Source: Gemmatimonadota bacterium
GTDB lineage: Bacteria; Gemmatimonadota; Gemmatimonadetes; Gemmatimonadales; GWC2-71-9
Direction: 5' to 3'
Length of the DNA stretch: 18,886 nucleotides
NCBI GenBank assembly: GCA_036679645.1
Contig: JAZDCY010000019.1
Coordinates: 1-18,886 of the forward strand
The notes below the pieces were generated by a model. That model ran no database searches. It was given only the letters and a program-made list of their open reading frames with translations, and had not been told where the DNA came from. The position numbers were made by a program, and so were the translations under genes. This document shows positions 1 through 18,886 of this stretch, in pieces (within the stretch, counting starts at the first letter, position 1; the number at the start of each line of letters is the position of its first letter).

Positions 1-1131
1 CCAGGGGGCCACGCTTGCGGGCAGCGGTGTCGTCGCGTCGATCAGAGATGCGAGCAGCAATCCCGTGCCCACGCCGGCTGCCGCGCCGATCGCCGCGGTG
101 GTCGTGGACTCGACTAGGAACTGCCGCAGAATATCGCGCCGACGCGCGCCGAGAGATTTGCGGATCCCGATCTCGCGGGTCCGTTCCGCGACCGACATGA
201 GCATGATGTTCATGATGACTATGCCGCCCACGACGAGGGAGATCCCGACGAGCATCGGCAAGGCGAGCATCAACACGCGATTGATCTTGGCCCAGAAGTC
301 CAGCACCGCGTCCGCCGTCTCGAGCGCGAAGTTGTTCTCCGTGCTAGGCCGCAGCTGCCGGCGCGTACGCATTGCCGCTTCTGCATCGGATAACGCTATC
401 GCCAGCTCGCCCTGGGACTCGGTCTTGAGGATCAGCGCGTCAATGACGCCCGGCGGATTGACGAACCGTTTTGCGGGTCCGTGTGCCGTCGTGACGGCGA
501 ACTTGTCGAGCGAGATTCCAAAGAGGTTGCCCTGCCGCTCCACGACGCCAATCACGCGGTACGGGATGTTGCGGATCTTCACGCGGCGGCCAATGGGGTC
601 AAGGTCCTCGAACAGGCGTTCCGCCAGCTCGTGTCCGATCACGAGGACCGGGGCACCGGCCTGCACCTCCTGAGCGCTGAAGGCACGGCCCATCTCGATG
701 GGGAGACTCTTGATGTCGAAGTACCGTTCGGTTGCGGCGGTGACCTCGATACCGGAAGCAACCTTGCCGCGCCACTCGAGATCCGCTCGGGCCGTGGACT
801 CCCAGGCTGAGATGTGTGGGACCGTAACCGCAGCGTCTACCGCGTCGGCGTCCGCATAGCGAATGCGCGGACGGCGGATCCAGCTGAGCCACGTTTCGCG
901 CGAGATCTCACCGGTTTCGAAGTACGGAAACCGGCGCATGTTGAAAGTGTTGACACCCAGCAACGTCCCTGCGAACCGGTCCGTCATGTACCGGTTCATG
1001 CCCTCGACGATCGACACGACAGCAATCAGAAACATGACGCCGATGAACACGCCGGTGACGCTGAACGAGGTCTTCATCTTGTTCGTCCAGACGGTCTTGA
1101 GCGCGAGGCGCACGGCCTCGAAGAACTGCAC
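1..1131 (-). CDS. ABC transporter permease, FtsX/MacB-like (YknZ-type); 3' end runs off the window
   Basis: Not in the ORF track because there is no stop in the window. Manual translation from GTG at 1131 (overlapping the ATPase TAG) gives MQFFEAVRLALKTVWTNKMKTSFSVTGVFIGVMFLIAVVSIVEGMN... The C-terminal part carries the FtsX signature ISLVVGGIVIMNIMLMSVAERTREIGIRKSLGARRRDILRQFLVES. Confidence 0.93.
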   Translation of the reverse strand, partial: MQFFEAVRLALKTVWTNKMKTSFSVTGVFIGVMFLIAVVSIVEGMNRYMTDRFAGTLLGVNTFNMRRFPYFETGEISRETWLSWIRRPRIRYADADAVDAAVTVPHISAWESTARADLEWRGKVASGIEVTAATERYFDIKSLPIEMGRAFSAQEVQAGAPVLVIGHELAERLFEDLDPIGRRVKIRNIPYRVIGVVERQGNLFGISLDKFAVTTAHGPAKRFVNPPGVIDALILKTESQGELAIALSDAEAAMRTRRQLRPSTENNFALETADAVLDFWAKINRVLMLALPMLVGISLVVGGIVIMNIMLMSVAERTREIGIRKSLGARRRDILRQFLVESTTTAAIGAAAGVGTGLLLASLIDATTPLPASVAPW

Positions 1132-1832
1132 TAAGCCGCTCGCCGCAACGTATCGGAGTGCACACGCCCGTCTCGCAAGGTCACGACCCGATGGGCGTGG
1201 TCGGCGATGCTGGGTTCGTGCGTGACCATGACGATCGTCTGGCCCTGGTCGTGCAACCCCTCGAAGACCCGCATGATGCCCTCGCTCGTGACCGAGTCGA
1301 GGTTTCCAGTCGGCTCATCCGCGAGCAGGATGCTCGGCGCGTTCACCAGCGCACGCGCAATTGCAACGCGCTGCCGCTGCCCACCGGAGAGCTCGCTAGG
1401 CTTATGATGCATCCGATCGGCGAGACCGACGCGATCGAGCGCGTTTTCGGCGCGCCGCCGCCGCTCGCTGGATCGGACGCCCGCATAGATCAACGGCAAC
1501 TCGACGTTGTGCAGTGCGCTAGCGCGCGGAAGCAGGTTGAACGTCTGGAATACAAAGCCGATCTCGCCATTTCGCACATGGGCCAGCTCGTCGTCCGACA
1601 TCTGAGAAACCTCGGTCCCGTTCAGCCAATACTCGCCCGCACTGGGGGTGTCGAGGCAACCGATCAAGTTCATTATGGTCGACTTGCCCGATCCCGAGGG
1701 CCCCATGATCGCGACATACTCGTTCGAGCCGATCTCGAGGTCGACACCGTCGAGAGCGCGTACGGTCTCGGCGCCCATCACGTACTCGCGAGCGAGCGCC
1801 CGCACCTGAATCAACGGCCGGTTCTGCGTCAT
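1131..1832 (-). CDS. ABC transporter ATP-binding protein, MacB/LolD/YknY-type
   Basis: Walker [21 protein letters not shown], signature [15 protein letters not shown], Walker [14 protein letters not shown]-loop MVTHE. Overlaps both neighbouring genes. Confidence 0.97.
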
Positions 1833-3082
1833 GACCCCCTCCCACGCTCGTTGCCGCCCTCGGCCATCGGGCGTACTTGCGTGCTGTCGCGGAGGTCGCG
1901 AATGGCCTGATATGGCCCGGCGACGATCGTGTCGCCGACGCTCAACCCCTCGAGGACCTCGAAGTGCTCTTCGCCCGCGATGCCGACCTTCACTGGACGG
2001 AACTGCGCAATGCCGCCCGCGACGATGAACACTCCCTCGGTCTCCTCATCAGCTTTCGTCGTGTCCTGCGGGGCGTTCTCGGTCGAGATCGGCGTGTGCT
2101 CCCGAATGGTCAACGCGATGATCGGAATGCTCAGCACGCTATCCCGGGTGTCCGTCACGATCTGTGCGGTCGCCGAAAGATCGGGACGTACGTTAGGCGG
2201 CGGATCGTCGAGCGTGATCTCGACGTCATAATCCACCGCACGGTCACCCGACCCGCCGACCTGACCGAGCACGGCGCTCTGCGAGATCTTGGTGACACGA
2301 CCGCCAAACGTCGTGTCGGGGAATGCGTCGATGGTCACTTCCGTTGAGTCCCCGATCGCCAGCCGTACGACATCTGTTTCATCTACCTGGACCTGTACCT
2401 GGATTACCGACAGATCGCTGACCGTCATCAGCAGACCGGTCTCGCGGGAAAACGTACCCGGAACGGCGACCTCGCCCTCCTCGACCGCCACGCGCGTGAT
2501 CTGTCCATCCATCGGCGAGCGCAACACGGTCTTTGCCAACTGGTCACGTGCCTCGCGCAGACCGGCACGTGCCTGGTCGACCTGACGCTGGCTCGAGAGC
2601 AAGATCGCTTCCGCGATACGGAATTGCGTGTCCGCCTGTTCCAACTGCTCGTCGGAAACCAGGTTCGGGTCGGTGGTCCTGAGCTCGCGCGACCGCCTCA
2701 GGGCCCGCTGGGCCTGCTCGCGGTTGGCCTCCGACTGAATTGCGCTGGCTGCCGCAGAAGCCAGCAGTGCCTCTGCCCGCGCCACCGCCGCTTCGTACGT
2801 GGACGGATCGATCCGAATGAGGAGATCGCCCGCACTGACCCAATCCCCTTCCTCCGCCCGAATCTCGATGACGCGTCCGGTGATGTCGGCACTGACATCT
2901 ACCTGCGTTTGCGGTTGGATCTTGCCGCTGGCCGTCACCGAGGCGACGAGATTACGCTGGTCGACCTCTTCCAGGCGAACCGCGACTCCGCGGTCACGCC
3001 CGCCAGCAATGTTGCTGACGATCAGGACGACGACGACAAGGCCGACGATCCCGCTGATAACCCATCTTCGTTTGCGCGCCAT
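1829..3082 (-). CDS. Efflux periplasmic adaptor (membrane fusion protein, MacA/HlyD/YknX-like)
   Basis: N-terminal TM anchor, lipoyl-like half motifs ([36 protein letters not shown]), coiled-coil hairpin, VDETDV, C-terminal [19 protein letters not shown] upstream. Confidence 0.95.
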
Positions 3083-3097
3083 GATCTGCGTTATCTC

Positions 3098-4588
3098 CTA
3101 GCGCAGCGCCCGCCCCACCGCTGCTTCCAGCGAGGCGATCGACTGATGATATGTGTACACCGCGTTGATGTAATCGGCCGCCGCCTGCTGCGACGCCAAT
3201 TGAGCGTCGAGCAACTCGAAGAAGGTACCCGATCCCACACGGTATCGTTCGGTGGCCAGCCGCAGTTGCTCCGAGGCGGCCACACGGTTGCGTTCCTGAA
3301 TCCCGATTGTCTGGTAGGCCGTCTCGAGCGAGTAGAACGCCTGGCTCACGTCGGTACGGACCTGGAGGCGCCTGGCTTCCATCGCTTCCCATGCGTCGTC
3401 GGCTGCCGCGGCGGCCGTTGACACGCGCTGAGGCCGGCCGAATTGGGTGAAGATCGGGAGCGAGATCGAGACACGGGCCGAGAATGGCTGGCTCGTGAAG
3501 TTGAATGGGAATACTTCGTTCTGCGACCGAATACGCGCCTCGTCTGTTGACGTCAACGCGAGCGAGTTGCAGTCGAGTGGCGTTGCACCGGCGTTCAGCC
3601 AGTTGGCATTCGTGAAAATGCATTCGTCTTGATTGGCGAGGGCGCCCAAACGGGCGCGGTCCACGTCGAAATTGCTATTCGTGTTCTGTTGAGTGAACCC
3701 GGCCCAGCCAGCAGAAACATTGAGGCTCGGGAGCCACTCCGATTTTGCCGCGGATTCGCTGGCCCGCGCAGCTCCCGCCCGCGCCCGCAACGTGTTCACA
3801 TCCGGATTGTCGTTTTCCGCCGCCGCCAAAAGCGCGGAAAGCGACCAATCCGGTTCGACCACTGGGAAGCTATCGGTCATGGTGACGACGGACGGATCTT
3901 CCGGGGCCGCTACGCCCATCTGCTGGAAGAGCCGGAGCTTCTCGACCGTCACCAACTGGCGCGCCTGTAGCAGTCCGACCTCCGACTGTCCCTCCGCGAC
4001 CTCGGCCTGTCGCACATCCAGCATCGTGGCCTGCCCGACCTGGAATCTGGCCTGCGCGAGTCGCAGGAACTCCTCGTTGCGGGTGAGTTGTAACTGGGCG
4101 AGCCCTACCTGCGCCTCTGCCTGCAGGATTGCCAGGTATTGCTGCCGCACCGAGGACTCGAGATTCGTGCGCGCACCGTCGATCGCCGCCTCCGCGGCGC
4201 GGAGCTGTGACTTGGCCAGCCCCGGCCCTGCCAGCGTGGCGCCGGAGAAGTTCCACGCTAGTCCCAACGAGTAGCTCGAGCCGAGCGTGGCCGGCTGTGG
4301 AAACTTCGTCGCGCCGAGGTTCAACTCGCCGGAGCCTTGGTAGGAGAATCCCATGTTGGCGTTGAACGACGGCAGGAACAACTGACTGTACGCATTGCGC
4401 ACGGCCCAAGCAGCGGGTCCGCGGTCGTTGGCGACTTGGCGAAACGTCGGGCTGTGACGAGAAGCGAGCTCGATGGCCTCTGAGAGCGACAGGCTCTGCG
4501 GGACGGATGGGACGGCCGGTCGCTGTGCGGCTGCGGGGACGGCTAGCGTCAGTGCAAAGCCCATCATGGCAAGGGTGCGTGCTAACAT
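3098..4588 (-). CDS. TolC-family outer membrane efflux protein
   Basis: Start moved to ATG 4588 (GAAGGAAG upstream; signal peptide MLARTLAMMGFALTLAVPAAA|Q). LSLSEAIELA start and two OEP repeats (ARFQVGQATMLDV; ERYRVGSGTFFELLDAQ), ending LEAAVG. Confidence 0.93.
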   Translation of the reverse strand: MLARTLAMMGFALTLAVPAAAQRPAVPSVPQSLSLSEAIELASRHSPTFRQVANDRGPAAWAVRNAYSQLFLPSFNANMGFSYQGSGELNLGATKFPQPATLGSSYSLGLAWNFSGATLAGPGLAKSQLRAAEAAIDGARTNLESSVRQQYLAILQAEAQVGLAQLQLTRNEEFLRLAQARFQVGQATMLDVRQAEVAEGQSEVGLLQARQLVTVEKLRLFQQMGVAAPEDPSVVTMTDSFPVVEPDWSLSALLAAAENDNPDVNTLRARAGAARASESAAKSEWLPSLNVSAGWAGFTQQNTNSNFDVDRARLGALANQDECIFTNANWLNAGATPLDCNSLALTSTDEARIRSQNEVFPFNFTSQPFSARVSISLPIFTQFGRPQRVSTAAAAADDAWEAMEARRLQVRTDVSQAFYSLETAYQTIGIQERNRVAASEQLRLATERYRVGSGTFFELLDAQLASQQAAADYINAVYTYHQSIASLEAAVGRALR

Positions 4589-4636
4589 TGTTCTTCCTTC
4601 GCGTGTGAATACGGTGGTTCCAATGACCCGCACGAG

Positions 4637-4665
4637 AATACGCGCTGGACGCGGGGAAGGTTTCA
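4637..4665 (-). promoter_or_regulatory. Putative ECF sigma factor promoter (SigW-like) for the efflux operon
   Basis: Minus strand reads TGAAAC-cttccccgcgtccagcg-CGTATT (TGAAAC-N17-CGTA), about 50 nt upstream of the tolC-like start. The B. subtilis SigW consensus is TGAAAC-N16-CGTA. Confidence 0.6.
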
Positions 4666-4724
4666 TGGTGTGACGCGAGCGGTCAGATTGGGCCGGTGAG
4701 CGGAGGGTGAGCCCCCGGCAGTGC

Positions 4725-5335: not shown

Positions 5336-6106
5336 CTAGTCCCCTTCGCGAGCGGACGGCAGCTGGCGACCAAAGATGCGGGCCGCAATCCGCTCATAGA
5401 TAACATTATAGAGTCGGCGTCCCTTCTCAACCGAGGCGAGGGTCGGCCGTCCCAGTGAGCCCGGGCTTTCCGGCGGAATCCGGGAGGTCGCGCGACGATA
5501 TGCCCGGAGCCGGCGCGAGGCGGGGATGAAATCGGTAGCCTCGTCGAGCTCGACGAGACTCGCGTCGATGTAGAGCAAGAGCGACGTATCGAATTCGCCG
5601 CCGTGAATCGGCACTGGCTCTTCCTGAGGGAGCGGCACGCTGAAAATGTCCACCGTGCGAATCTCAGCCGACTGGGTACGGAGTGTGGTGAGCGCCTCCT
5701 GGTGTGGGTCGTTGCCGTGGGCCGTGATGATGACGAACCGCTCTATGCCACCGACCTCCCACGAGCCGACCAGGTCGTTCATGAACCGGTGGAGGGTCTT
5801 GCGGCGAACCGTGGCGTTCCCGGGGTACACCGTACGCGTGACGGCATTGACCCCATATTCTACGGTGGGCGCGCGTAGGACGCCGAATTCCTGCGAGAGG
5901 TCGTCAGCCAGTCGCTCGACGATGATCGTGTCCAAGCCGAACGGGAGGTGGGGGCCGTGCTGTTCGGTCGTGCCGACTGGCACGATGAGCCGCGGGTCCC
6001 GGTCTATGATCTCGCGGACCTCGGGAGGAGTCAGGTACTTGAGCGCCAGGGGGTGGCGGTGACCCGCCGGCGAGTCGGTCAGTGGGAGCTCGTGGCTCTG
6101 TTCCAT
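5336..6106 (-). CDS. Creatininase-family amidohydrolase
   Basis: Start moved to ATG 6106 (AGGAG upstream). Motifs LIVPVGTTEQHGPHLPFGLDT, YGV, PGN, ITAHGN, IHGGEFDTS and G-x-LGRPTLASVEKGRRL match the family. Confidence 0.9.
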   Translation of the reverse strand: MEQSHELPLTDSPAGHRHPLALKYLTPPEVREIIDRDPRLIVPVGTTEQHGPHLPFGLDTIIVERLADDLSQEFGVLRAPTVEYGVNAVTRTVYPGNATVRRKTLHRFMNDLVGSWEVGGIERFVIITAHGNDPHQEALTTLRTQSAEIRTVDIFSVPLPQEEPVPIHGGEFDTSLLLYIDASLVELDEATDFIPASRRLRAYRRATSRIPPESPGSLGRPTLASVEKGRRLYNVIYERIAARIFGRQLPSAREGD

Positions 6107-9100
6107 GGGCTCCTGCTGGGTGCGTGGCTGCTGCACCCGGTTTGGGGATGGGCACTTGCGGTTTGCGGATCGGGCCTGTTGACGGTCGTTCTGGGGATCG
6201 GGGCACGTCGAGCGACGGTTCTGTTGGTCACCGGTATTGGGCTCGTGGCTGTCGGTGCCGCGCTGAATACCACCGCACGGGTCTCGCGCGTCGAGCGGGC
6301 GTGGGGCACGGACTCGACCGGAGTCAGATGGCAGCTGGTCGATGACGCGTTCCGGCACCTCGATGACGTGCTGCTGTCCTCGGTCGATCGGATCCAGGAC
6401 ATCGCCGAACGGGCGGAGGCGCTGGTAGACGGGGAGCGGGCCGCCGCCTTTGCCAAGCTGGAGGATGCGGTTGAAGGGGACGGCGCGGAGGTGGGTGTCC
6501 TGATACTCGACGGCGAGCAGCGGCCGTGGGCGTGGGCTGGACGCCATCGGCTTCCTTTTTCCGCGGTCGTCACCGGACTCGACGTGCGCATCACTCCATT
6601 CTACGCGACGCTGGACGCGTGGCGCCAGACTGAGAATGGGTACACGGTGGTTGCCCACGTGCTGCTCGATGCGGACCAGGCCGTCCCGGACCGCGAGCGC
6701 ACGCTCCGAACGCGGTTCGCGATTACCAGCGGTGTAGACCTCGAGTTCTACGCTGCCGGCCGCGGCCCGTGGGCGGACGTTTTCGACTATTGCCTGCCGT
6801 CGTGTACAGCGACGGACGTGGTCCCCGATACGCTGTTCAGCGTGCGACTGGTGCCACCTACGCAGGGGACTTACAAGCTGGACCTGCTGGCCGGTGGCGA
6901 GCGGCGTGTTGCGGTGCTGATCGGTCTCTTTCTGCTCGGTGCGATGCTGCTGGGCGGCCGCCTCGCGCGGGGCGGTGCGCTGCTGGCGTTGGGTGGCTTG
7001 TTGGTCTTCACGCCTGCCGGAAGCGACCTGCGCTTGGGGACTCTGTTCTCCCCGGCGACATTCTTCACGGAGACCCTTGGACCCGTCTCCGACTCGGCGG
7101 GTGCCCTCCTCACGACCGCTATCCTCGCGCTCATTGCCGCGGTTGCGCTATTCCGGTGGGGCGTGCGCCGCGGGATGGCGACTATCGGCGTGGCGGCGGT
7201 CCTGATCGTGACGGCGCCGTATCTCCTCGGCGAGCTTGCATCTGGGATCACACCTCCCGCGGCGGGATCCGATGTAGGACTCTGGCTTCAGTGGGAGTTG
7301 CCGATCGCCGTAGCGAGCGCCGCGCTCCTGCTTCTCGCCGCGGGGTTCGTCCGTGGCCGCGACCTCGCCGCGCGGGCCCCGGGATGGATGTCGCTCGTGG
7401 CCGCCGCCTGGGCCGTCGGTGCGGCCCTCGTTGGATTGCTCGTGTGGCAGCCCATCTCCGGGTGGCCGTACTGGTACCTCTACCTCTGGCTGCCGGCCAT
7501 CGTGTTCGCCATTCAACCGGGTCCCCGACTCCGGGTGGTCGCCACGTTGGCCGTCGTGTCGGGATCGGCGTCGGCGCTGCTCACGTGGGGCGCGGCGGCC
7601 GATGGCCGGCGGCTGCTGGCCGAGCGGGACATGGTGGGACTGCGCCAAGGTGGTGATCCGGTAGCGGTGGGGCTGCTGGAGCAGTTCGGGTCCCGACTGC
7701 AGGAGGAGGAGTTGCCGCAGAGTGCGGCCGAGCTGTTCAGTCGGTGGAGCCGATCCTCCCTCTACGAGGATGGGTACCCAGCGCTCCTGGTCGCGTGGTC
7801 CCGCAACAACGCCGTCCTAGCACGACTCGACCTGGCGGAACTCGCGTTGGCCGATGAACTCGCCGTCCTGCAACGGCAGGCGGCCGCGGCCGTGGAAACG
7901 CACGTCCCGGTCGTGCGGCAGTTGGAGCGCGTTCCGGGAATGCACTACGTCCTGTCCGTTCCGTATCCGGACGGGTCCGCTGTCTCGGTCGCCATCGGCC
8001 CACGGTCGCGCGCGATCGCCCCCGTGCGGATCGCGCAGTTTCTTCGCGGTGAGCCAACGCTGCCACCGCCGTATCAGCTCACGCTTTCCGAGCCCATCGT
8101 GGGGGCGGTTCCGCTCGGACCGAATGCGATCACTTGGCGGCGTGATGGCCGAGTCGTGCGCGGTGAGGCATTGCTGCAGATCTCGGATGCCGCACGTCAC
8201 CTCCACGCGGCCGTCCAACTCGGCACGACCAGTGGCGTCCTGATCCGAGGTGTGTTGGTCGTCGCGCTCGACGTGGCGTTGATCGTGTTCCTCTGGCTGT
8301 TCGGCGAAGCCGCCCTGGGAGGCGTGCGGGTCCCGCCAGTCCTGATCGAACTCGTGTCCGGTCGCTCCTATCGCACGCGGTTGGGGCTGGCGTTCGCCGT
8401 GTTCTTCGTCATTCCCACGGTCGGCTTTGCTGCGTGGTCTGCCCGGCGACTGCAGGTGGAGGCTGAGGGGGCGCGGGACCTCGTCATTCGCCAGACCCTC
8501 GCCGACGCCGCGGGCACCGTCACCGAGTTTCCGGGCATGCCGGCCATCGTGGCCCGCGAGTTCCTCGCGGATCTGGGTGGGCGGCTCAGCTCGGATCTCG
8601 TGTTGTACGAGGGGAGCGAGCTGTCGGAATCCTCGGCGCCGGTCCTGATCGAGTTGAGCGTGCTGGATCAGTATCTCTCCAGGAACGTGGAGCGCGCGCT
8701 CGTCATCGGTGATCAACTCGAATACTCGACCAGCGAAGTGATCGCCGGCAGTGAGACGCGCGTCGGCTACCGCGATCTCGGGGGCAGGGAAGGACGTGAG
8801 GCAATCCTGGCGGCGCCGCGGCTCGTGGAGGACCCGTTGCTCATTCGGAACGAGCAAGATCTCCTGTTCGGCCTGCTCCTCGTGACCCTCGGCGGCATGG
8901 TGGCGGCCGCGGTGCTCGCGACCGTCGCCGCGGGCGCGCTTGCCAAACCGGTGCAGGCGTTGCGGGAGGCCGCGGAGCAGGTGGGCCGGGGCGTCATGCC
9001 CAGTCCGTTCGGACGGGACACGCCCGGTGAGTTCGTGCCGGTGATGACGGCCTTCGAGCGGATGGCGAGCGACGTAAGCGCCTCGCGGCGCGCCGTCGAG

Positions 9101-10084
9101 GAACAGCGGCAGCGTACCGTCGCCGTTCTCCGCAATGTCGCAACGGGCGTCGTGGCGCTGGACGACCGGCTCTGCGTGACGATGGCCAACCCGCGGGCTG
9201 AGGAACTGCTGGGCTGCAGGCTCGTGCACGGCCTGGCAATCGCCGAGCTGTCACATGAGGGGTGGATGCCGGTCTGGGAATGGGTCCGGGCAGCGGCCCG
9301 CGGGCTCGAGGATACCGAACCCACTGAGTTCACCATCGATGAGACACAGGTCCGGGTCCAGATGGGCCGCCTACGCGGCACGGCGAGCGGGTGGGTAGTC
9401 GCGCTCGATGACGTGACCGATCTGGCCCGTGCCGTCCGCGTCCTGGCATGGGGCGAGCTCGCGCGTCAGGTCGCGCACGAGATCAAGAACCCGCTCACGC
9501 CCATCCGCCTCGGGATTCAGCATCTACGTCGCTCGTTCAACGCTCCCCGCGGTGACTACGCCGAAACACTTGACCGGACGAGCAAGCAGATGCTCGCGGA
9601 GATCGAGCGGCTCGATGCGATTGCCCGGGCTTTCTCGCGTTTCGGTGCCCCACCCGCTGAGGCCGAGCCACTAGAGGTCGTCGATCTGGTGGAAGTGGCG
9701 CGCGATACGGCCGCCCTATACACACTGGGGGAGAGCGATGCCGTGCGCGTCGAATCTGAGGGTCCGGCCACGGGAACGGCCCGACGAGACGAGCTGAAGG
9801 AGGTGTTGATCAACCTGATCGAGAACGCGCGAACGGCCGGAGCGCGGCACGTCACGATCTCGCTGGCAGCTGCGAACGAGACGGCGAGCATCGCGTTGCG
9901 TGACGATGGACAGGGGATCCCGCCAGAGGATCTACCTCGGATCTTCGAGCCGCAGTTTTCTACGACGACGAGCGGGACGGGACTCGGCCTCGCGATCTGT
10001 AAGCGGCTGGTCGAGTCGTGGGGCGGGGAGATCGCGGTCGAGAGCGGAGGGGATGGGACGACTGTGACGATTCGGGTGTCGTAG
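6059..10084 (+). CDS. Large multi-TM sensor histidine kinase (HAMP-PAS-HisKA-HATPase_c), NtrY-like; start uncertain
   Basis: H-box WGELARQVAHEIKNPLTPI, N-box EVLINLIENA, G1 DDGQGIP, F-box RIFEPQFST, G2 GTGLGLAI. HAMP (LAKPVQALREAAEQVGRG), PAS (VATGVVALDD...ANPRAEELLG) and many N-terminal hydrophobic segments. GTG 6059 chosen because it directly precedes the first TM segments. Confidence 0.92.
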   Translation: MTRRRVGQWELVALFHGLLLGAWLLHPVWGWALAVCGSGLLTVVLGIGARRATVLLVTGIGLVAVGAALNTTARVSRVERAWGTDSTGVRWQLVDDAFRHLDDVLLSSVDRIQDIAERAEALVDGERAAAFAKLEDAVEGDGAEVGVLILDGEQRPWAWAGRHRLPFSAVVTGLDVRITPFYATLDAWRQTENGYTVVAHVLLDADQAVPDRERTLRTRFAITSGVDLEFYAAGRGPWADVFDYCLPSCTATDVVPDTLFSVRLVPPTQGTYKLDLLAGGERRVAVLIGLFLLGAMLLGGRLARGGALLALGGLLVFTPAGSDLRLGTLFSPATFFTETLGPVSDSAGALLTTAILALIAAVALFRWGVRRGMATIGVAAVLIVTAPYLLGELASGITPPAAGSDVGLWLQWELPIAVASAALLLLAAGFVRGRDLAARAPGWMSLVAAAWAVGAALVGLLVWQPISGWPYWYLYLWLPAIVFAIQPGPRLRVVATLAVVSGSASALLTWGAAADGRRLLAERDMVGLRQGGDPVAVGLLEQFGSRLQEEELPQSAAELFSRWSRSSLYEDGYPALLVAWSRNNAVLARLDLAELALADELAVLQRQAAAAVETHVPVVRQLERVPGMHYVLSVPYPDGSAVSVAIGPRSRAIAPVRIAQFLRGEPTLPPPYQLTLSEPIVGAVPLGPNAITWRRDGRVVRGEALLQISDAARHLHAAVQLGTTSGVLIRGVLVVALDVALIVFLWLFGEAALGGVRVPPVLIELVSGRSYRTRLGLAFAVFFVIPTVGFAAWSARRLQVEAEGARDLVIRQTLADAAGTVTEFPGMPAIVAREFLADLGGRLSSDLVLYEGSELSESSAPVLIELSVLDQYLSRNVERALVIGDQLEYSTSEVIAGSETRVGYRDLGGREGREAILAAPRLVEDPLLIRNEQDLLFGLLLVTLGGMVAAAVLATVAAGALAKPVQALREAAEQVGRGVMPSPFGRDTPGEFVPVMTAFERMASDVSASRRAVEEQRQRTVAVLRNVATGVVALDDRLCVTMANPRAEELLGCRLVHGLAIAELSHEGWMPVWEWVRAAARGLEDTEPTEFTIDETQVRVQMGRLRGTASGWVVALDDVTDLARAVRVLAWGELARQVAHEIKNPLTPIRLGIQHLRRSFNAPRGDYAETLDRTSKQMLAEIERLDAIARAFSRFGAPPAEAEPLEVVDLVEVARDTAALYTLGESDAVRVESEGPATGTARRDELKEVLINLIENARTAGARHVTISLAAANETASIALRDDGQGIPPEDLPRIFEPQFSTTTSGTGLGLAICKRLVESWGGEIAVESGGDGTTVTIRVS

Positions 10085-13922: not shown

Positions 13923-13935
13923 TGAGGAAAACACT

Positions 13936-15588
13936 ATGAAACGCGTATTTCATGCCGTACTGGTTGCCACCATCGCGGCCGGCTGTAGTGGTGAACCCGT
14001 TGTGCCCGGGGCAGCGCTCGAGAGCATCACGGCGGAAGACATCGCTCCGCGTATCGCCGCGCTGGCCTCTGACGAGTTCGCGGGACGTGCACCGTCGTCG
14101 GAGGGCGAGACGCGCACGTTGGCATACCTGCGCGATGAGTTCTCGCGGCTCGGTCTCGAGCCGGGCAACGACACCAGCTACTTCCAGGAAGTGCCGCTAA
14201 TCAAGTCGACCGTGACGCCCGGTCCCGCTCTGGTGATCAGCGGCAACGGCCAGACGGCCCGGTTCGCGTACGCCGATGATTTCGTGGGGGTGACACGCCG
14301 CGTCGTGGACGAGACCGGGCTCGACAACTCGGAGCTGGTCTTCGTCGGGTACGGGATCGTAGCGCCCGAGTACGACTGGAACGACTATGCTGGCATCGAT
14401 GCCCAGGGTAAGACCGTTGTCGTTCTCGTGAACGACCCCGGATTCGCGACGCAAGACACGGCCCTCTTTCGCGGCAACGCAATGACATACTACGGCCGCT
14501 GGACCTACAAGTACGAAGAGGCCGCCCGGCAGGGAGCCGACGGCGTGTTGATCGTGCACGAGACCGCACCAGCCGCGTATGGCTGGGATGTCGTGCGCAA
14601 TGGGTGGACGGGTCCCCAATTCATGTTGGAGACGCCAGACGGCAACATGAGTCGCACGGCGGTCGAGGGATGGATCTCGCACGAGACGGCGCGGTCGATC
14701 TTCGCGAGTGGGGGCCACGACTACGAATCGCTCAAAGGAGGTGCGGCGACACCCGGCTTCACGGCGGTGCCGCTGGACGTCACCGCCTCCGTACGGCTCG
14801 AGAATACGATCGAGCGATCCCGCTCTTACAACGTGCTCGCGCGCGTCCCGGGCACCGATCGCGCCGACGAATACGTCGTGTACATGGCGCATTGGGATCA
14901 CCTCGGCACGGACCCGCTGATTGCCGGTGACGGGATCTACAACGGCGCGCGCGACAATGCGACCGGGACCGCGGCATTGCTGGAGCTGGCCGAGGCGTTC
15001 CAGGCATTGAGCACGCGCCCGTCACGATCCGTCCTGTTTCTCGCCACCACTGCCGAAGAACAGGGGCTGCTCGGCTCGCAACACTACGCGCTGAATCCGG
15101 TCGTTCCGCTCGACCACACCGTGGCGGCGTTGAACATGGACTCGATGAACTCGTTCGGGCCGACGCGAGACATCACCGTCGTTGGGTACGGTAACTCCGA
15201 GCTGGACGACTTCGCCCAGCGGGCGGCGGACGAGCAGGGCCGGTATCTGCGACCCGACGCGGAGCCCGAGAAGGGGTTCTACTACCGGTCAGACCACTTC
15301 TCCTTTGCCAAACTTGGTGTTCCGGCGCTCTACCTCGATCCCGGAGTCGAAGCCGTCGACGGTGGTGAGGCGTACGGGCGTGAGCAGCTGGATGCGTATA
15401 CCGCCAATCGGTACCATCAGCCCACGGATGAAATGGACGATACGTGGAACCTGAGTGGTATGGCGGAAGACGTGCGTCTCTTCTTTCGGATTGGGTACCG
15501 GCTGGCGAATACGGGCGCGTTCCCCAACTGGCGGGAGGGTACGGAATTTCGAGCGGCGCGGGATGCCATGATGGGGCAGGGGCGATGA
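13936..15588 (+). CDS. M28-family metallopeptidase with PA domain, lipoprotein
   Basis: Start moved to ATG 13936 (SD GAGG; lipobox IAAG|C). LASDEFAGR, PA domain (LVFVGYGI...DYAGID), AHWDHLG, IYNGARDNATG, TAEEQGLLGS, LNMD, RSDHFSF, YHQPTDE. Confidence 0.95.
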   Translation: MKRVFHAVLVATIAAGCSGEPVVPGAALESITAEDIAPRIAALASDEFAGRAPSSEGETRTLAYLRDEFSRLGLEPGNDTSYFQEVPLIKSTVTPGPALVISGNGQTARFAYADDFVGVTRRVVDETGLDNSELVFVGYGIVAPEYDWNDYAGIDAQGKTVVVLVNDPGFATQDTALFRGNAMTYYGRWTYKYEEAARQGADGVLIVHETAPAAYGWDVVRNGWTGPQFMLETPDGNMSRTAVEGWISHETARSIFASGGHDYESLKGGAATPGFTAVPLDVTASVRLENTIERSRSYNVLARVPGTDRADEYVVYMAHWDHLGTDPLIAGDGIYNGARDNATGTAALLELAEAFQALSTRPSRSVLFLATTAEEQGLLGSQHYALNPVVPLDHTVAALNMDSMNSFGPTRDITVVGYGNSELDDFAQRAADEQGRYLRPDAEPEKGFYYRSDHFSFAKLGVPALYLDPGVEAVDGGEAYGREQLDAYTANRYHQPTDEMDDTWNLSGMAEDVRLFFRIGYRLANTGAFPNWREGTEFRAARDAMMGQGR

Positions 15589-15759: not shown

Positions 15760-16632
15760 TCAGAGGGGCGTGCCGACCCGCCGATGCTGCGCGAGCACTG
15801 ATTCGACACGCGTCTGCGGCACCCCAACATGCTTGGCGAATGCCAGCACCGCGCAGGCGAAATCCAATGGAGGTCCATCTCTGCTTGCCATTCCGAGCCA
15901 GTGCGTGCGTTGGCGCCGGAGCGTATCCTCGCTCATTCCGATTGCCCGTGCTACGACGCCCCAACCGAGCCCACTCCAGTCACGGGTGTACGTCGCGAGG
16001 AGCAGCGATGTCCAGTCCAGTAGCTCTTTCGGGCCAGGGACCACGGCCGACGGCCATCGGCGGAGAAGTGTGCGCGGCGAAATGCCGAGGCTCTGGGCCA
16101 GAGCGGCCACCGAGCAGCGGGCACCGACGCCCCGCAGCCGCAAAGCCGTGCGGGCGAACTCGGCGGGACGACCTCGCAAACCGGGTAGCAGAGCGGTGAG
16201 GACCGCCATCACGGCCTCCTCCGGAGCGGTGCGCAGGAGCCGGGCGAGTGCCTTCGCGATGCGTTCGACGTCAGGCGACGTCCTTTCCTGAGAAATGGCT
16301 GACACACCACGCAGGCTTCGTAGCGAAAACAGGACCGGCACCATCTCAGAGTGTACTGGGACATAGAGCAGAATTGGCAGGGCCGGGCGCAGACGCCGCA
16401 GATCGTGTAACGCCCTGACGGCCGTCCGCGCCGGCACGCAATCGAAGATCAACCCTTGATACTTGGCGAGTCTGTCTATGTTCGAGGTCCCGCTCCAGCC
16501 GGCTTCACGCACGGCAGCGCCGAAATGTCGGATCCCCGCCTCCGCGTAGGAACGCGCGAGCGCGTCCGTGACCGCGACCGCAACGGTGGTGCCGTGGTGG
16601 GCTGGACGGAGAACTCCCGGTCGAAGAGACAT
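15760..16632 (-). CDS. AraC/XylS-like double-HTH transcriptional regulator with degenerate receiver-like N-terminal domain
   Basis: HTH1 SVAALAQSLGISPRTLLRR, linker PGPKELLDW, HTH2 WGVVARAIGMSEDTLRR. N-terminal alpha/beta region (GLIFDC...LRRLRPALPILLY) resembles a REC fold. Divergent from the peptide cassette. Confidence 0.75.
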   Translation of the reverse strand: MSLRPGVLRPAHHGTTVAVAVTDALARSYAEAGIRHFGAAVREAGWSGTSNIDRLAKYQGLIFDCVPARTAVRALHDLRRLRPALPILLYVPVHSEMVPVLFSLRSLRGVSAISQERTSPDVERIAKALARLLRTAPEEAVMAVLTALLPGLRGRPAEFARTALRLRGVGARCSVAALAQSLGISPRTLLRRWPSAVVPGPKELLDWTSLLLATYTRDWSGLGWGVVARAIGMSEDTLRRQRTHWLGMASRDGPPLDFACAVLAFAKHVGVPQTRVESVLAQHRRVGTPL

Positions 16633-16697
16633 CGCGCAATGAAATGGCGGGGGCGATCACCGTGAGTCAAGGTGCTTCCCCAAGCGCACATGTCGCA

Positions 16698-16729
16698 TTT
16701 TGCGGGGGGGGGGGGGGCCGGTTTTGCGG
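16698..16729. promoter_or_regulatory. G14 homopolymer between TTTTGCGG direct repeats in the divergent promoter region
   Basis: TTTTGCGG at 16698-16705 and 16722-16729 (24-bp period); G run at 16704-16717. Confidence 0.55.
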
Positions 16730-16807
16730 TTGTGGCACCAAAGCCGATTCACCCATCGTAATGCGATCCACTGCCAGAGGCACACGCTACCTGAGGCCGA
16801 ACGCCGC

Positions 16808-17092
16808 ATGACAGCAACTCATAAACGTGGCTCAGCGCACAGGCTCGCGGCTACGTCGGTGCTGAGTCTTGTCATCCTGCTAGGAGTCGGCGGGTGCGGC
16901 GATGACCGGGATGCGGGGACGCGCGCGTCTTCCGAGAGCGATCGCATTTCCGTCGTGGATGGACGGCCGTTCGATGACGCCTTTGTCGTGGTGGATTCGC
17001 TTGACCGTCCGCAGCGTGCCAAGCGCTTGTCGAATGGTGACATTCGAGGTTCTTCTCTACTGCCCACAACTACACTTCACGTCAGGGGGTAA
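16808..17092 (+). pseudogene. Short lipoprotein ORF (94 aa), probably the N-terminal remnant of a beta-propeller lipoprotein
   Basis: ATG 16808; lipoprotein signal ...SVLSLVILLGVGG|C30, polar linker, then FDDAFVVVDSL, which resembles VLAVDTL in the intact propeller downstream. The sequence afterwards looks non-globular and overlaps the next gene's SD. Confidence 0.45.
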
Positions 17093-17096
17093 CACA

Positions 17097-17303
17097 ATGA
17101 AGTACTCACGCCTAGGGAGTATTGCTGGCGTTCTTGCCGCGGTCGGGATTCTGCTCGTTCTTCGCCCCGCCGAGAGTACTGCGGATCCGGGGTGGAAACT
17201 GAACTTACCCTGGGGTAACTGTGCAATCGATTGTACGCCGAACCCTGAGGTCGGGTTTCATTGCGACTGTTACGAACTTCCCCCAATCATCGTCGAGGGC
17301 TAG
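17097..17303 (+). CDS. Small secreted cysteine-containing peptide (68 aa; predicted 39-aa mature part)
   Basis: SD AGGGGGT 6 nt before ATG 17097. Sec signal MKYSRLGSIAGVLAAVGILLVLRPAESTA|; mature DPGWKLNLPWGNCAIDCTPNPEVGFHCDCYELPPIIVEG with Cx3C-x9-CxC. Stop lies 4 nt before the next gene. Confidence 0.8.
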   Translation: MKYSRLGSIAGVLAAVGILLVLRPAESTADPGWKLNLPWGNCAIDCTPNPEVGFHCDCYELPPIIVEG

Positions 17304-17307
17304 GGCG

Positions 17308-18432
17308 GTGAAACCCGGTCGGGCCCGTCGGTTCAATTGGACCGCATTGCGTTTTGCGTATACGGTGGTGCTGGGCTCGCTCGCAATAGCGTGCACCTCA
17401 CCGGCGGCGCAGGACAGGTCCTCGACCGACGGGCCGACCGTCCTTGCTGTAGACACGCTAGTTCTTGTTGAGACAGACTCGTTGTACCTGGCCCGTCCAC
17501 TTGCTCTCTACAGAGACCCGACCGGTGGATTCTATGTGTCGGATTTGTTTCGGAATCGCGTCGTGCTCTACGATGTCGCCGGGAACGCCGGGCGCATCTT
17601 TGGTCGACCTGGCGGTGGTCCCGGAGAACTCCGACAGGTCTCATTCGTTTTCGTGCGAGATGACTCCACCGTGGCGGTTTTCGATATCTCGAAGAGGTTA
17701 ATCAATCTCTACGATCGCAACACGGCGGTCTTCCGCAAGACTGTGCAGTTTGAGGGCATTGGCTTGAGTATACAGACTACCGATGAAGCGACTTGGTTTG
17801 GCGCAATGCAACTTGGAAGAGGCACCGCCGTCGCACGTTGGAAATCTGGCAGCCAAGCGGTTGAGTACTTCATCCCGATGCCCGAGGCATACTTTCAGTC
17901 GCGACTTCTTGCGGGCAATTACGCTGGCGCCTGGGTAGCGGTTTGGGAAGACACCCTAGCAGTAGTTATGACCGGAGCAGACACTGTCCGCCTATTCACA
18001 ACCACGGGTTCCAAGCTAGACGCCATCCGCGTACCAGTCCGCCGCAGACGCGGGGTCCCACTAGACATCGTGGACCAGATGCAGCCCCGGCGAGGGCTCT
18101 CGACCCGCGACCGTTTTGCTCTTGCCTCTGCGGTAATGGGTTTGTATCGACAGTCGGATGGTACGCTTCTTCTTATACATGCCGATCAAAGCATTGATGG
18201 ACGGCTGATCACGGCGGATGTCTTCGTGAGCTTAATATCGCCGGACCGAACCCGAGCCTGTGTGGATACGCAGCTAGCAGTATCGAAAGACGCGCAACCG
18301 CTATACACCTTCTACGCCGATACGCTGTTTGTGTTGGAGCAGCGTATCGGTGACAATGACAACGTCAGAACCTCTGTGACCAGCTACCGGATTGACGGCG
18401 ACCGATGCGACTGGATTCAGATCACTCGATAG
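17308..18432 (+). CDS. Six-bladed beta-propeller (TolB/NHL-like) lipoprotein
   Basis: Start moved to GTG 17308; lipobox LAIA|C29. Blade motifs FYVSDLFRNRVVLYD, FGRPGGGPGEL (G.xG.GPGE signature), VAVFDISKRLINLYD. Two C-terminal Cys. Confidence 0.85.
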   Translation: MKPGRARRFNWTALRFAYTVVLGSLAIACTSPAAQDRSSTDGPTVLAVDTLVLVETDSLYLARPLALYRDPTGGFYVSDLFRNRVVLYDVAGNAGRIFGRPGGGPGELRQVSFVFVRDDSTVAVFDISKRLINLYDRNTAVFRKTVQFEGIGLSIQTTDEATWFGAMQLGRGTAVARWKSGSQAVEYFIPMPEAYFQSRLLAGNYAGAWVAVWEDTLAVVMTGADTVRLFTTTGSKLDAIRVPVRRRRGVPLDIVDQMQPRRGLSTRDRFALASAVMGLYRQSDGTLLLIHADQSIDGRLITADVFVSLISPDRTRACVDTQLAVSKDAQPLYTFYADTLFVLEQRIGDNDNVRTSVTSYRIDGDRCDWIQITR

Positions 18433-18791
18433 AACAACTCTTCATCGCAGCCTATAACACCGTCATACGAACCGTGGTCACGGCTTGGGCGGGCATCGCG
18501 CTCTCCGGATGTGGTTCTGGGATAATTCCGATTGTGGAAGCCCGCCTTGAGGATGGACGAACAGTCCGTGAGGTTGCAGCAGCTTGGGACACCTCAATTG
18601 TGCTCATATACGATCCGAGTGACTGTTTCACATGTTCGGGGGTCCTAGGGTCGTGGCTGGGAGAGGGCGAGCAGTCACCCGTTGCGGTCGCACTTGTTCT
18701 TGCACGGACTCCGTCGGCGTCTGAGCAGCGATTGATCAAGCTTTACCGTCTACCCGTTGCTGGGATCATGAAGAGTCAAGCCCAATCTTAG
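18405..18791 (+). pseudogene. CxxC thioredoxin-like lipoprotein, apparently truncated by an IS insertion at ~18773
   Basis: Lipobox ALSG|C, beta-strand SIVLIYDPSD followed by CFTC (18624-18635), then helix and VAVALVL. No cis-Pro second half is visible; the last residues (SQAQS*) come from the IS-like terminus. Start uncertain. Confidence 0.6.
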
Positions 18792-18886
18792 TTGAAACTT
18801 CTTACGGCCCCGACAACCTCATGCTGCCCGCCTGCTCCTCTCCTCTGCGCGTTCCAGCTTCAGCTCTTTCATGATCGCAGTTTGAA
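18773..18886 (-). mobile_element. Probable IS256-family insertion sequence, right end only
   Basis: Minus strand shows a transposase-like C-terminus QTAIMKELKLERAEERSRRAA* (stop 18819-18821), followed by AAGTTTCAACTAAGATTGGGCTTGACTC. This resembles IS256-type terminal repeats as recalled, not searched. The window ends inside the element. Confidence 0.6.
18819..18884 (-). CDS. C-terminal fragment of a probable IS256-family transposase (partial)
   Basis: Open frame from the window edge: QTAIMKELKLERAEERSRRAA*. Only 21 residues are visible. Confidence 0.5.
   Translation of the reverse strand, partial: QTAIMKELKLERAEERSRRAA

Follow-up and report, generated by a model that had tools for sequence, protein, structure and literature searches.

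A conserved Gemmatimonadota gene module encoding a candidate secreted four-cysteine peptide, a beta-propeller lipoprotein and a thioredoxin-like protein

The DNA analysed here, a stretch of 18,886 nucleotides from a Gemmatimonadota bacterium (contig JAZDCY010000019.1 of assembly GCA_036679645.1; "the window"), carries near its right end genes for a signal-bearing four-cysteine peptide, a six-bladed beta-propeller lipoprotein and a thioredoxin-like CxxC protein. We find that these three genes form a conserved Gemmatimonadota module. We propose, with a probability of about 40%, that the module provides an exported disulfide mini-protein, a folding helper and a cognate propeller partner and is used in antagonism, a reading in which we infer export, disulfides, binding, antagonism and control by a regulator. 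The copy in the window is partly decayed, with peptide and propeller intact and the folding helper probably dead. The window is the entire contig C12 of an assembly of 100 contigs and 4.05 Mb; below, G denotes genomes (G000 is this genome), L loci, C contigs of this assembly and X1 a sequencing run. The three genes are:

17097 to 17303, plus strand: 68-residue precursor peptide (from the sequence and a homologue alignment)
17308 to 18432, plus strand: six-bladed NHL/DUF5128-related beta-propeller lipoprotein, 374 residues (from model, fold match and conservation)
18405 to 18791, plus strand: thioredoxin-like lipoprotein of TlpA/ResA-type fold with C74-x2-C77 (C-F-T-C), truncated before the cis-proline strand (from an alignment; start codon uncertain)

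A conserved three-gene module

The original prediction expected propeller homologues to be accompanied by a small upstream cysteine peptide and a CxxC gene. In a propeller-anchored set of 25 distinct loci, from which the window and four duplicates (L007, L011, L005, L012) were excluded, the thioredoxin-like gene was present at 14 loci. The genes do recur as a unit, but a signal-bearing cysteine peptide was found at only 12 of the 25 (nine with the family motif, three with other frameworks). Because these loci had seeded the models, two out-of-sample tests were run. A search of 401 genomes of the class with the peptide alignment gave six new matches; five lay directly upstream of a propeller of this clade with a thioredoxin-like gene adjacent, and one was false. 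One of the peptide-anchored loci (L073) has the gene order of the window. The alignment of thioredoxin-like proteins had matches in 36 of the 401 genomes, at 30 loci, and the 22 previously unseen ones were examined. All 22 held a propeller, and 13 held a same-strand peptide with a signal and the motif C-x3-C-x5..16-C-x0..1-C, against 0.004 expected per locus, an expectation derived from the window's own genome and set beside thioredoxin-anchored genomes many of which are kin. The usual gene order is thioredoxin-like, peptide, propeller, and across three families the peptide immediately precedes the propeller, in many cases by only a few bases.

The sites of the module vary between genomes, and integrases or transposases lie nearby. 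Of 93 neighbouring open reading frames (ORFs), 41 were picked by eye and scanned. They comprised integrases, a transposase, a mobilisation protein, one TonB-dependent receptor, carboxypeptidase-regulatory-like proteins and housekeeping genes, with no peptide exporter, no modifying enzyme and no conserved transporter among them. The earlier remark that no enzyme modifying a ribosomally synthesised and post-translationally modified peptide is visible holds for these neighbours.

Other cassettes were seen in the same genome. A second type combines a redoxin with a secreted peptide of six to seven cysteines a few kb from a TonB-dependent receptor (G000 C7:77468-82036, C8:91372-96663, C97:6577-11939), and three almost identical peptides of the C8/C97 type are encoded on contig C19. 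Large clusters of regulator, peptide, redoxin and propeller, in which peptides with six to eight cysteines and other frameworks stand in tandem, occupy G000 C22:77922-87246 and C32:50084-53107.

The ORF of the 68-residue four-cysteine peptide proposed originally is borne out, with a predicted Sec signal and homologues. A hydrophobic predicted Sec signal (residues 1-29) is followed by an acidic 39-residue mature part of the form W-x8-C-x3-C-x9-C-x-C (Cys42/46/56/58), which ends in a hydrophobic strand (residues 61-68) resembling a TonB box. The four cysteines are invariant across 26 aligned peptides while the sequence between them varies; the mature parts are short, most of them acidic (net charge -8 to +2). 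A peptide 45-47% identical (L014) is found in the congener G002, in an intact triplet with a divergent short helix-turn-helix (HTH) regulator. The window's own genome contains ten ORFs with a signal and a cysteine motif, in several frameworks, all of which we read as secreted cysteine-rich mini-proteins. The peptide matches no Pfam or NCBIfam family. An analogy with NVEALA-type peptides was not upheld: none of the 26 matches NVEALA (PF14055) in Pfam at E<=0.1, and the NVEALA motif is absent from the sequence. The best score of an ESM Atlas search with the peptide was 0.79, a lead only at low recognition. Long peptide forms (L136:9636-10004, L137:8219-8578, L121:1-312) have an acidic spacer before the four-cysteine domain and an aromatic C-terminal strand, which is reminiscent of the beta-signals of outer-membrane proteins.

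The propeller gene starts with a GTG at 17308, 4 nt past the peptide stop, and encodes a lipobox cysteine at position 29. Its model has 24 strands forming six four-stranded blades (predicted local distance difference test 90.6), in agreement with the propeller lipoprotein first described there. The best Foldseek match is 3s9j, BVU_1028 (DUF4221), with a template-modelling score of 0.62 and 10% identity, followed by NHL domains and BF0058. PF17170 (DUF5128) is matched by 44 of 99 family members at E<=0.001, and two homologues exceed the Pfam cut-off; the window protein has no match at E<=0.1. Invariant positions are G102, P243, R247, C318, D320 and C367, and a P-x3-RRG patch is conserved. The clade has a patchy distribution: at E<=1e-30 it is present in 9 of 61 relatives, with up to eight copies in a single genome. 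The 150 best matches include more than 100 full-length representatives at 50% identity. Propellers occur without the peptide at 13 of the 25 loci, two of which have less than 400 nt upstream, and also in tandem. One lineage (L005, L012, L022) has an intact propeller but neither the peptide nor the final part of the thioredoxin-like gene. At L002:6100-7300, directly after a propeller gene, regularly spaced repeats look by eye like a CRISPR array.

The propeller might instead be an enzyme, a lyase, hydrolase or maturase acting on the peptide or on an envelope substrate, with the peptide as substrate or regulator. Six-bladed relatives include the amidating lyase and virginiamycin B lyase, and R247, S274, H291 (81%), D293 and D320 are conserved. 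However, the 99 propeller sequences contain no invariant histidine, metal triad or other metal-site constellation, fewer than half of the 26 peptides have a C-terminal glycine, and enzyme folds match the propeller less well than DUF4221 does; we consider an enzyme improbable. The specific case of a peptidyl-alpha-hydroxyglycine amidating lyase, an enzyme with invariant metal-binding histidines and a Gly-extended substrate, was rejected, no histidine being more than 81% conserved and most peptides having no terminal glycine.

In the thioredoxin-like protein the CxxC follows a beta-strand at the start of a helix (strand 43-49, helix 58-70, model numbering). Among 40 members the CxxC is kept in 35 and its second cysteine in all, and most have a proline at or beside the cis-proline column. 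At two Longimicrobium loci (L001:4079-4639, L008:4965-5552) the first cysteine is replaced and an intact peptide is still adjacent. A structure search with the truncated model returned mostly thioredoxin folds as top matches (TlpA/ResA/peroxiredoxin-like), all weak (Z 4.0-4.7); the best Foldseek match was a thioredoxin at E 0.26. Compared with Pfam and PDB sequences, the alignment gave one weak AhpC-TSA match only.

The window's copy of this gene runs into a further feature:

18773 to 18886, no strand: end of a collapsed multi-copy repeat; the thioredoxin-like gene is broken by it, and the contig stops with it (from repeat match, unitig and depth)

The overlapping CxxC lipoprotein of the original prediction stands as regards the ORF, the motif and the overlap with the propeller gene (28 nt), but this copy is cut by the repeat and has no cis-proline strand. 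Homologues run about 50-60 residues further and include the cis-proline column, whereas the window copy ends before the cis-proline loop and the C-terminal beta-beta-alpha element. Judged from its sequence the gene is truncated, since its stop lies inside the repeat and homologues are that much longer; because of the truncation the protein is probably inactive. The last 112 nt of the window recur without a difference at the end of contig C66, and C42 has a related end. In X1, which may be the source sample and in which contig or unitig depth is no copy number, a unitig covering 17016-18802 ends 30 nt inside the repeat and summed depth rises from 82 to 423. The repeat is likely an insertion sequence, with no match in 60 relatives that would assign it to a family. 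The rest of the thioredoxin-like gene was not found elsewhere in the assembly.

Genomic setting and regulator

To the left of the cassette lie the following features:

13933 to 15588, plus strand: M28 peptidase, a core gene and the left border of the island (from Pfam)
15760 to 16632, minus strand: AraC-type double-HTH regulator, 290 residues, with an N-terminal part that is receiver-like by eye (from a weak HTH_18 match and Atlas neighbours)
16633 to 16807, no strand: putative divergent promoter region containing, at 16691, the element TGTCGC-x-TTT-x-G and, at 16704-16717, a run of 14 G (from the sequence)
16808 to 17092, plus strand: 5' remnant of a lipoprotein gene, a 94-codon ORF (from a lipobox-type signal and a second copy in X1)

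The cassette is the left portion of an acquired island. In the congeners G001 and G002 the orthologue of the M28 peptidase is directly followed by a phosphoribosyltransferase-type gene (read by eye), so the site is empty in both congeners examined. In this genome the phosphoribosyltransferase-type gene is found close to the left end of C92, beyond another propeller gene. The position of the cassette as the left part of an insertion follows from these two observations; the join between the island and C92 we infer from synteny. The cassette had also been described as less GC-rich than its flanks. This is correct for the peptide, propeller and CxxC genes, with a GC content of 0.55-0.57 against 0.60-0.64 in four flanking genes and third-position values (GC3) of 0.54-0.62 against 0.74-0.84, but not for the regulator gene (GC 0.66, GC3 0.72). 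A sigma-70 promoter scan gave no sites, terminators were at chance level, and a repeat search within the cassette found nothing meaningful. About 11 kb from the cassette the window contains a 1378-residue sensor kinase (5948-10084) and a MacB/HlyD/TolC-type export locus (1-4666), apparently core genes.

The regulator scores 18.3 bits with HTH_18 (cut-off 33.6), which one cassette-adjacent relative passes (L129), and its Atlas neighbours are Gemmatimonadota HTH_18 clusters at 0.94-0.97 with HTH_18 in 32-98% of members. Close homologues occur in seven of the 401 class genomes, all within its own family. Of 17 loci with homologous regulators, 11 have a propeller, in most cases one distant from this clade; other cysteine peptides lie opposite the regulator at several, and this peptide family is absent from all 17. 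A broader profile found nine distinct regulators in the window's own genome, six of them within about 2 kb of one of 19 propeller matches and seven facing a small signal-bearing secreted protein or a redoxin-peptide pair. A regulator is near the module at 3 of 51 related module loci (L032, L113/L129, L036; flanks of 1.5-6 kb). It is a real but optional companion; on this count its candidacy as a fixed fourth gene was rejected. Related regulators at L060:5437-6321, L064:232-1065 and L036:13149-14786 face secreted serine-protease-like genes, not peptides. Beside one regulator-peptide-propeller locus, L061:2778-4922 encodes a 715-residue protein that combines an anti-sigma zinc finger with a C-terminal AhpC/TSA-like domain.

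By eye, elements like that in the window's promoter region also precede related regulators (L064, L092, L094), where they form direct repeats spaced by about 21 nt. Two copies 21 nt apart also precede a secreted lipoprotein gene without an adjacent regulator (G000 C24:39841-39862), a possible regulon member. The nine regulator promoter windows cover 0.17% of the genome and contain four of its 29 G/C runs of at least 10, three of these four being paralogous. Such poly-G/C runs were noted at window 16704-16717 and at G000 C32:52576, C97:4476, C97:11920 and C88:3395, one of them where a regulator ORF changes frame, and phase variation is possible.

Peptide signalling is an alternative to antagonism: the peptide would be a cue, the propeller its receptor, and the AraC-type regulator would close a feedback loop. 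The placement of six of the nine regulators near propellers and of seven opposite secreted proteins or redoxin-peptide pairs speaks for such a loop, as do the propellers at 11 of 17 regulator loci and the repeat elements shared by the promoters. But the cassette contains no membrane-spanning transducer, the regulator looks cytoplasmic, many of its relatives are reduced to two HTH motifs, and it accompanies few module loci (3 of 51) and here faces a broken propeller gene first. We regard signalling as quite unlikely.

That broken gene is the remnant at 16808-17092. In X1 a second copy of 16264-17045, about 90% identical, parts from it at 17001 and continues in frame in a way that resembles, by eye, the first strand of a propeller; this second copy is also supported by P0167, a regulator 88% identical to that of the window. 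Compared with the propeller profile, the remnant matches over its signal only (probability 25%). It is probably an earlier propeller gene broken near 17001. Because the second copy reads on like a propeller past this point, the divergent promoter seems first to have driven that different, now broken gene. The operon divergent from an AraC-like regulator, as originally described, is thus confirmed as to the 290-residue minus-strand regulator and its orientation, but the remnant lies between the two and the regulator is optional.

The decay of the window copy bears on a further alternative, in which the propeller-thioredoxin pair is the functional unit, peptides are exchangeable passengers without a fixed partner, and the window holds a decaying remnant. 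At the 22 thioredoxin-anchored loci a propeller was always present and a motif peptide 13 times, the lineage L005/L012/L022 has lost the peptide and part of the thioredoxin-like gene, and the window copy is flanked by two broken genes. Yet in three families the peptide directly precedes the propeller and keeps its four cysteines and partly the same tail, and peptide and propeller of the window are free of stops. A role of the peptides as mere passengers seems to us quite unlikely.

Proposed function and the peptide tail

In the antagonism that we favour, the peptide would be exported by Sec, the thioredoxin-like lipoprotein would likely sort its two predicted disulfides, and the propeller would likely bind it as a cognate partner and most probably shield the producer from a peptide directed at related bacteria. 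The divergent AraC-type regulator would control the cassette. Antagonism is favoured because of the polymorphism around fixed cysteines, the mobility, the large repertoires and the orphan or tandem propellers; immunity genes also persist as orphans. Of the peptide signalling or antagonism cassette originally predicted, the conserved unit stands and antagonism is the function we suggest, but the cassette offers no membrane transducer for signalling, and its CxxC protein is probably inactive in the window.

Several observations count against antagonism. Eight of the 25 propeller-anchored loci, with more than 1 kb of flank, have neither partner. Five of the 40 thioredoxin-like members have no first cysteine. 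The 41 scanned neighbours include no outer-membrane exporter and no conserved transporter, so release from the periplasm is unexplained. Typical membrane-active bacteriocins are unlike these mostly acidic mature peptides. Finally, the co-variation of peptide and propeller anticipated earlier was not found above shared descent in a mirror-tree comparison: peptide and propeller distances correlate with rho 0.39 (14 loci) or 0.31 (thinned to 9 loci), and these values give no sign of co-evolution beyond shared descent, since the signal peptides correlate almost as well (0.21 and 0.27). A complex prediction for the mature peptide (26-row alignment) and the propeller (96 rows) scored 0.02 and is uninformative, since the controls likewise were not folded.

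A periplasmic metal or redox module would account for some of these points. Here the four cysteines would bind copper or zinc, the TlpA-type lipoprotein would keep them reduced, and the propeller would receive metal or electrons, as in a split NHLRC2/SOQ1 with a small carrier. TlpA/ResA/DsbE-type folds, which belong to reductases, lead the structural matches; NHLRC2 and SOQ1 set a thioredoxin-like active site against a six-bladed NHL propeller; the peptides are acidic; and no exporter is present. However, the same cassette type holds other frameworks (CC doublets, five to eight cysteines) that better fit disulfide scaffolds, and a patchy, mobile occurrence with about ten different peptides per genome fits housekeeping poorly. 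This alternative appears unlikely to us.

Antagonism could take a specific form suggested by the peptide tail. Many of the peptides finish in a hydrophobic strand after the last cysteine, and the last eight residues of the window peptide recur unchanged in a peptide from another family (L112). We built a matrix from TonB-box-like 8-mers that precede the plug domain in 12 of the 14 TonB-dependent receptors of the genome, the other two having no such motif. The window tail scores 14.4 bits, within the leave-one-out range of real boxes (3.6-21.1). Only 20 of 1,100,025 8-mers in called genes score at least as high: 11 training boxes, about four likely further receptor boxes and about five by chance. 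Tails above the 99.9th percentile were found in 12 of 26 homologues and 8 of 2748 control C-termini (shuffled window tail, p = 0.0005), in an analysis that was post hoc and whose positives represent few independent lineages. Against a TonB box, the tail lacks the usual threonine at position 7, 14 of the 26 homologues stay below the threshold, and just one of 10 genomes (G134, at 4.7 kb) has a TonB gene close to the cassette; on the last count a TonB gene was rejected as a cassette member. The window's genome encodes two TonB C-terminal domains (C4:86778-87014, C64:16113-16352). A generic partner-binding beta-strand would explain the tail equally well.

On this basis the peptides might, rather speculatively, be natural disulfide-stabilised mini-proteins with a C-terminal TonB-box mimic, which TonB would pull into neighbouring cells or which would jam TonB-dependent uptake, while the cognate propeller would sequester the peptide in the producer. 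Gemmatimonadota would then carry a polymorphic arsenal of about ten such peptides per genome, controlled by dedicated AraC-type regulators, some of which would have poly-G promoters capable of phase variation.

Comparison with known systems

Loci of a small protein and a six-bladed propeller are common in Gemmatimonadota, and we found no functional account of them. The present analysis delimits one peptide family together with a thioredoxin-like partner and a regulator family associated with it, and points to an intact congener locus (G002 L032). A large family of so far unexplained propeller lipoproteins would gain a role if the TonB-box-like tail of the peptide is functional. A literature search, with most subscription papers and all supplements outside its scope, found no paper on the cassette, no matching characterised system and no functional account of Bacteroidota DUF5128 loci.

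The Bacteroidota DUF5128 (PF17170)/DUF4221 propellers (BVU_1028, 3s9j; BF0058, 4raa) share the fold and the lipoprotein type. Their neighbourhoods include NVEALA small proteins, the likeness being that a small signal-bearing gene precedes the propeller. Identity to the structures is 10-13%, and the four-cysteine motif, the thioredoxin-like family and the tail are distinct here. Disulfide bacteriocin clusters with a dedicated thiol-disulfide oxidoreductase, such as sublancin/BdbB and pediocin/PedC, likewise place a small cysteine peptide beside a CxxC protein and a candidate immunity protein. They use a double-glycine leader, whereas the present peptides are acidic, carry a Sec-type signal and have a propeller partner. 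Unlike class II bacteriocin and microcin loci, the 41 neighbours scanned include no peptidase-ABC exporter or modifying enzyme; the contig ends after the cassette, and the right part of the island is unseen.

Human NHLRC2 and Arabidopsis SOQ1 have a thioredoxin-like domain fused to a six-bladed NHL propeller, according to the available parts of PMC6107167 and bioRxiv 2021.03.16.435614, and the former source, in the same part, reports bacterial NHLRC2 homologues outside conserved operons. The same two folds thus stand side by side, and the propeller profile matches SOQ1 weakly at the sequence level. The fused proteins have CCINC, whereas the module has two separate lipoproteins, a C-F-T-C motif and a peptide gene (no search was aimed at longer fused forms).

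For uptake, colicins depend on a TonB box of their own, as the accessible portion of PMC11658791 describes. In colicin M and klebicin C, again as far as the portion seen describes, the box is N-terminal on a large protein, whereas here the box-like tail, absent from 14 of the 26 homologues, is C-terminal on a 39-residue peptide. TonB-box peptides inhibit TonB, and those in the accessible part of PMC9841981 are designed; if the tail is functional, the present peptides would be natural inhibitors or hijackers of TonB. With the group B colicins, klebicin C and the TonB-box peptide inhibitors they share a short strand, and here this strand scores like the host's own TonB boxes.

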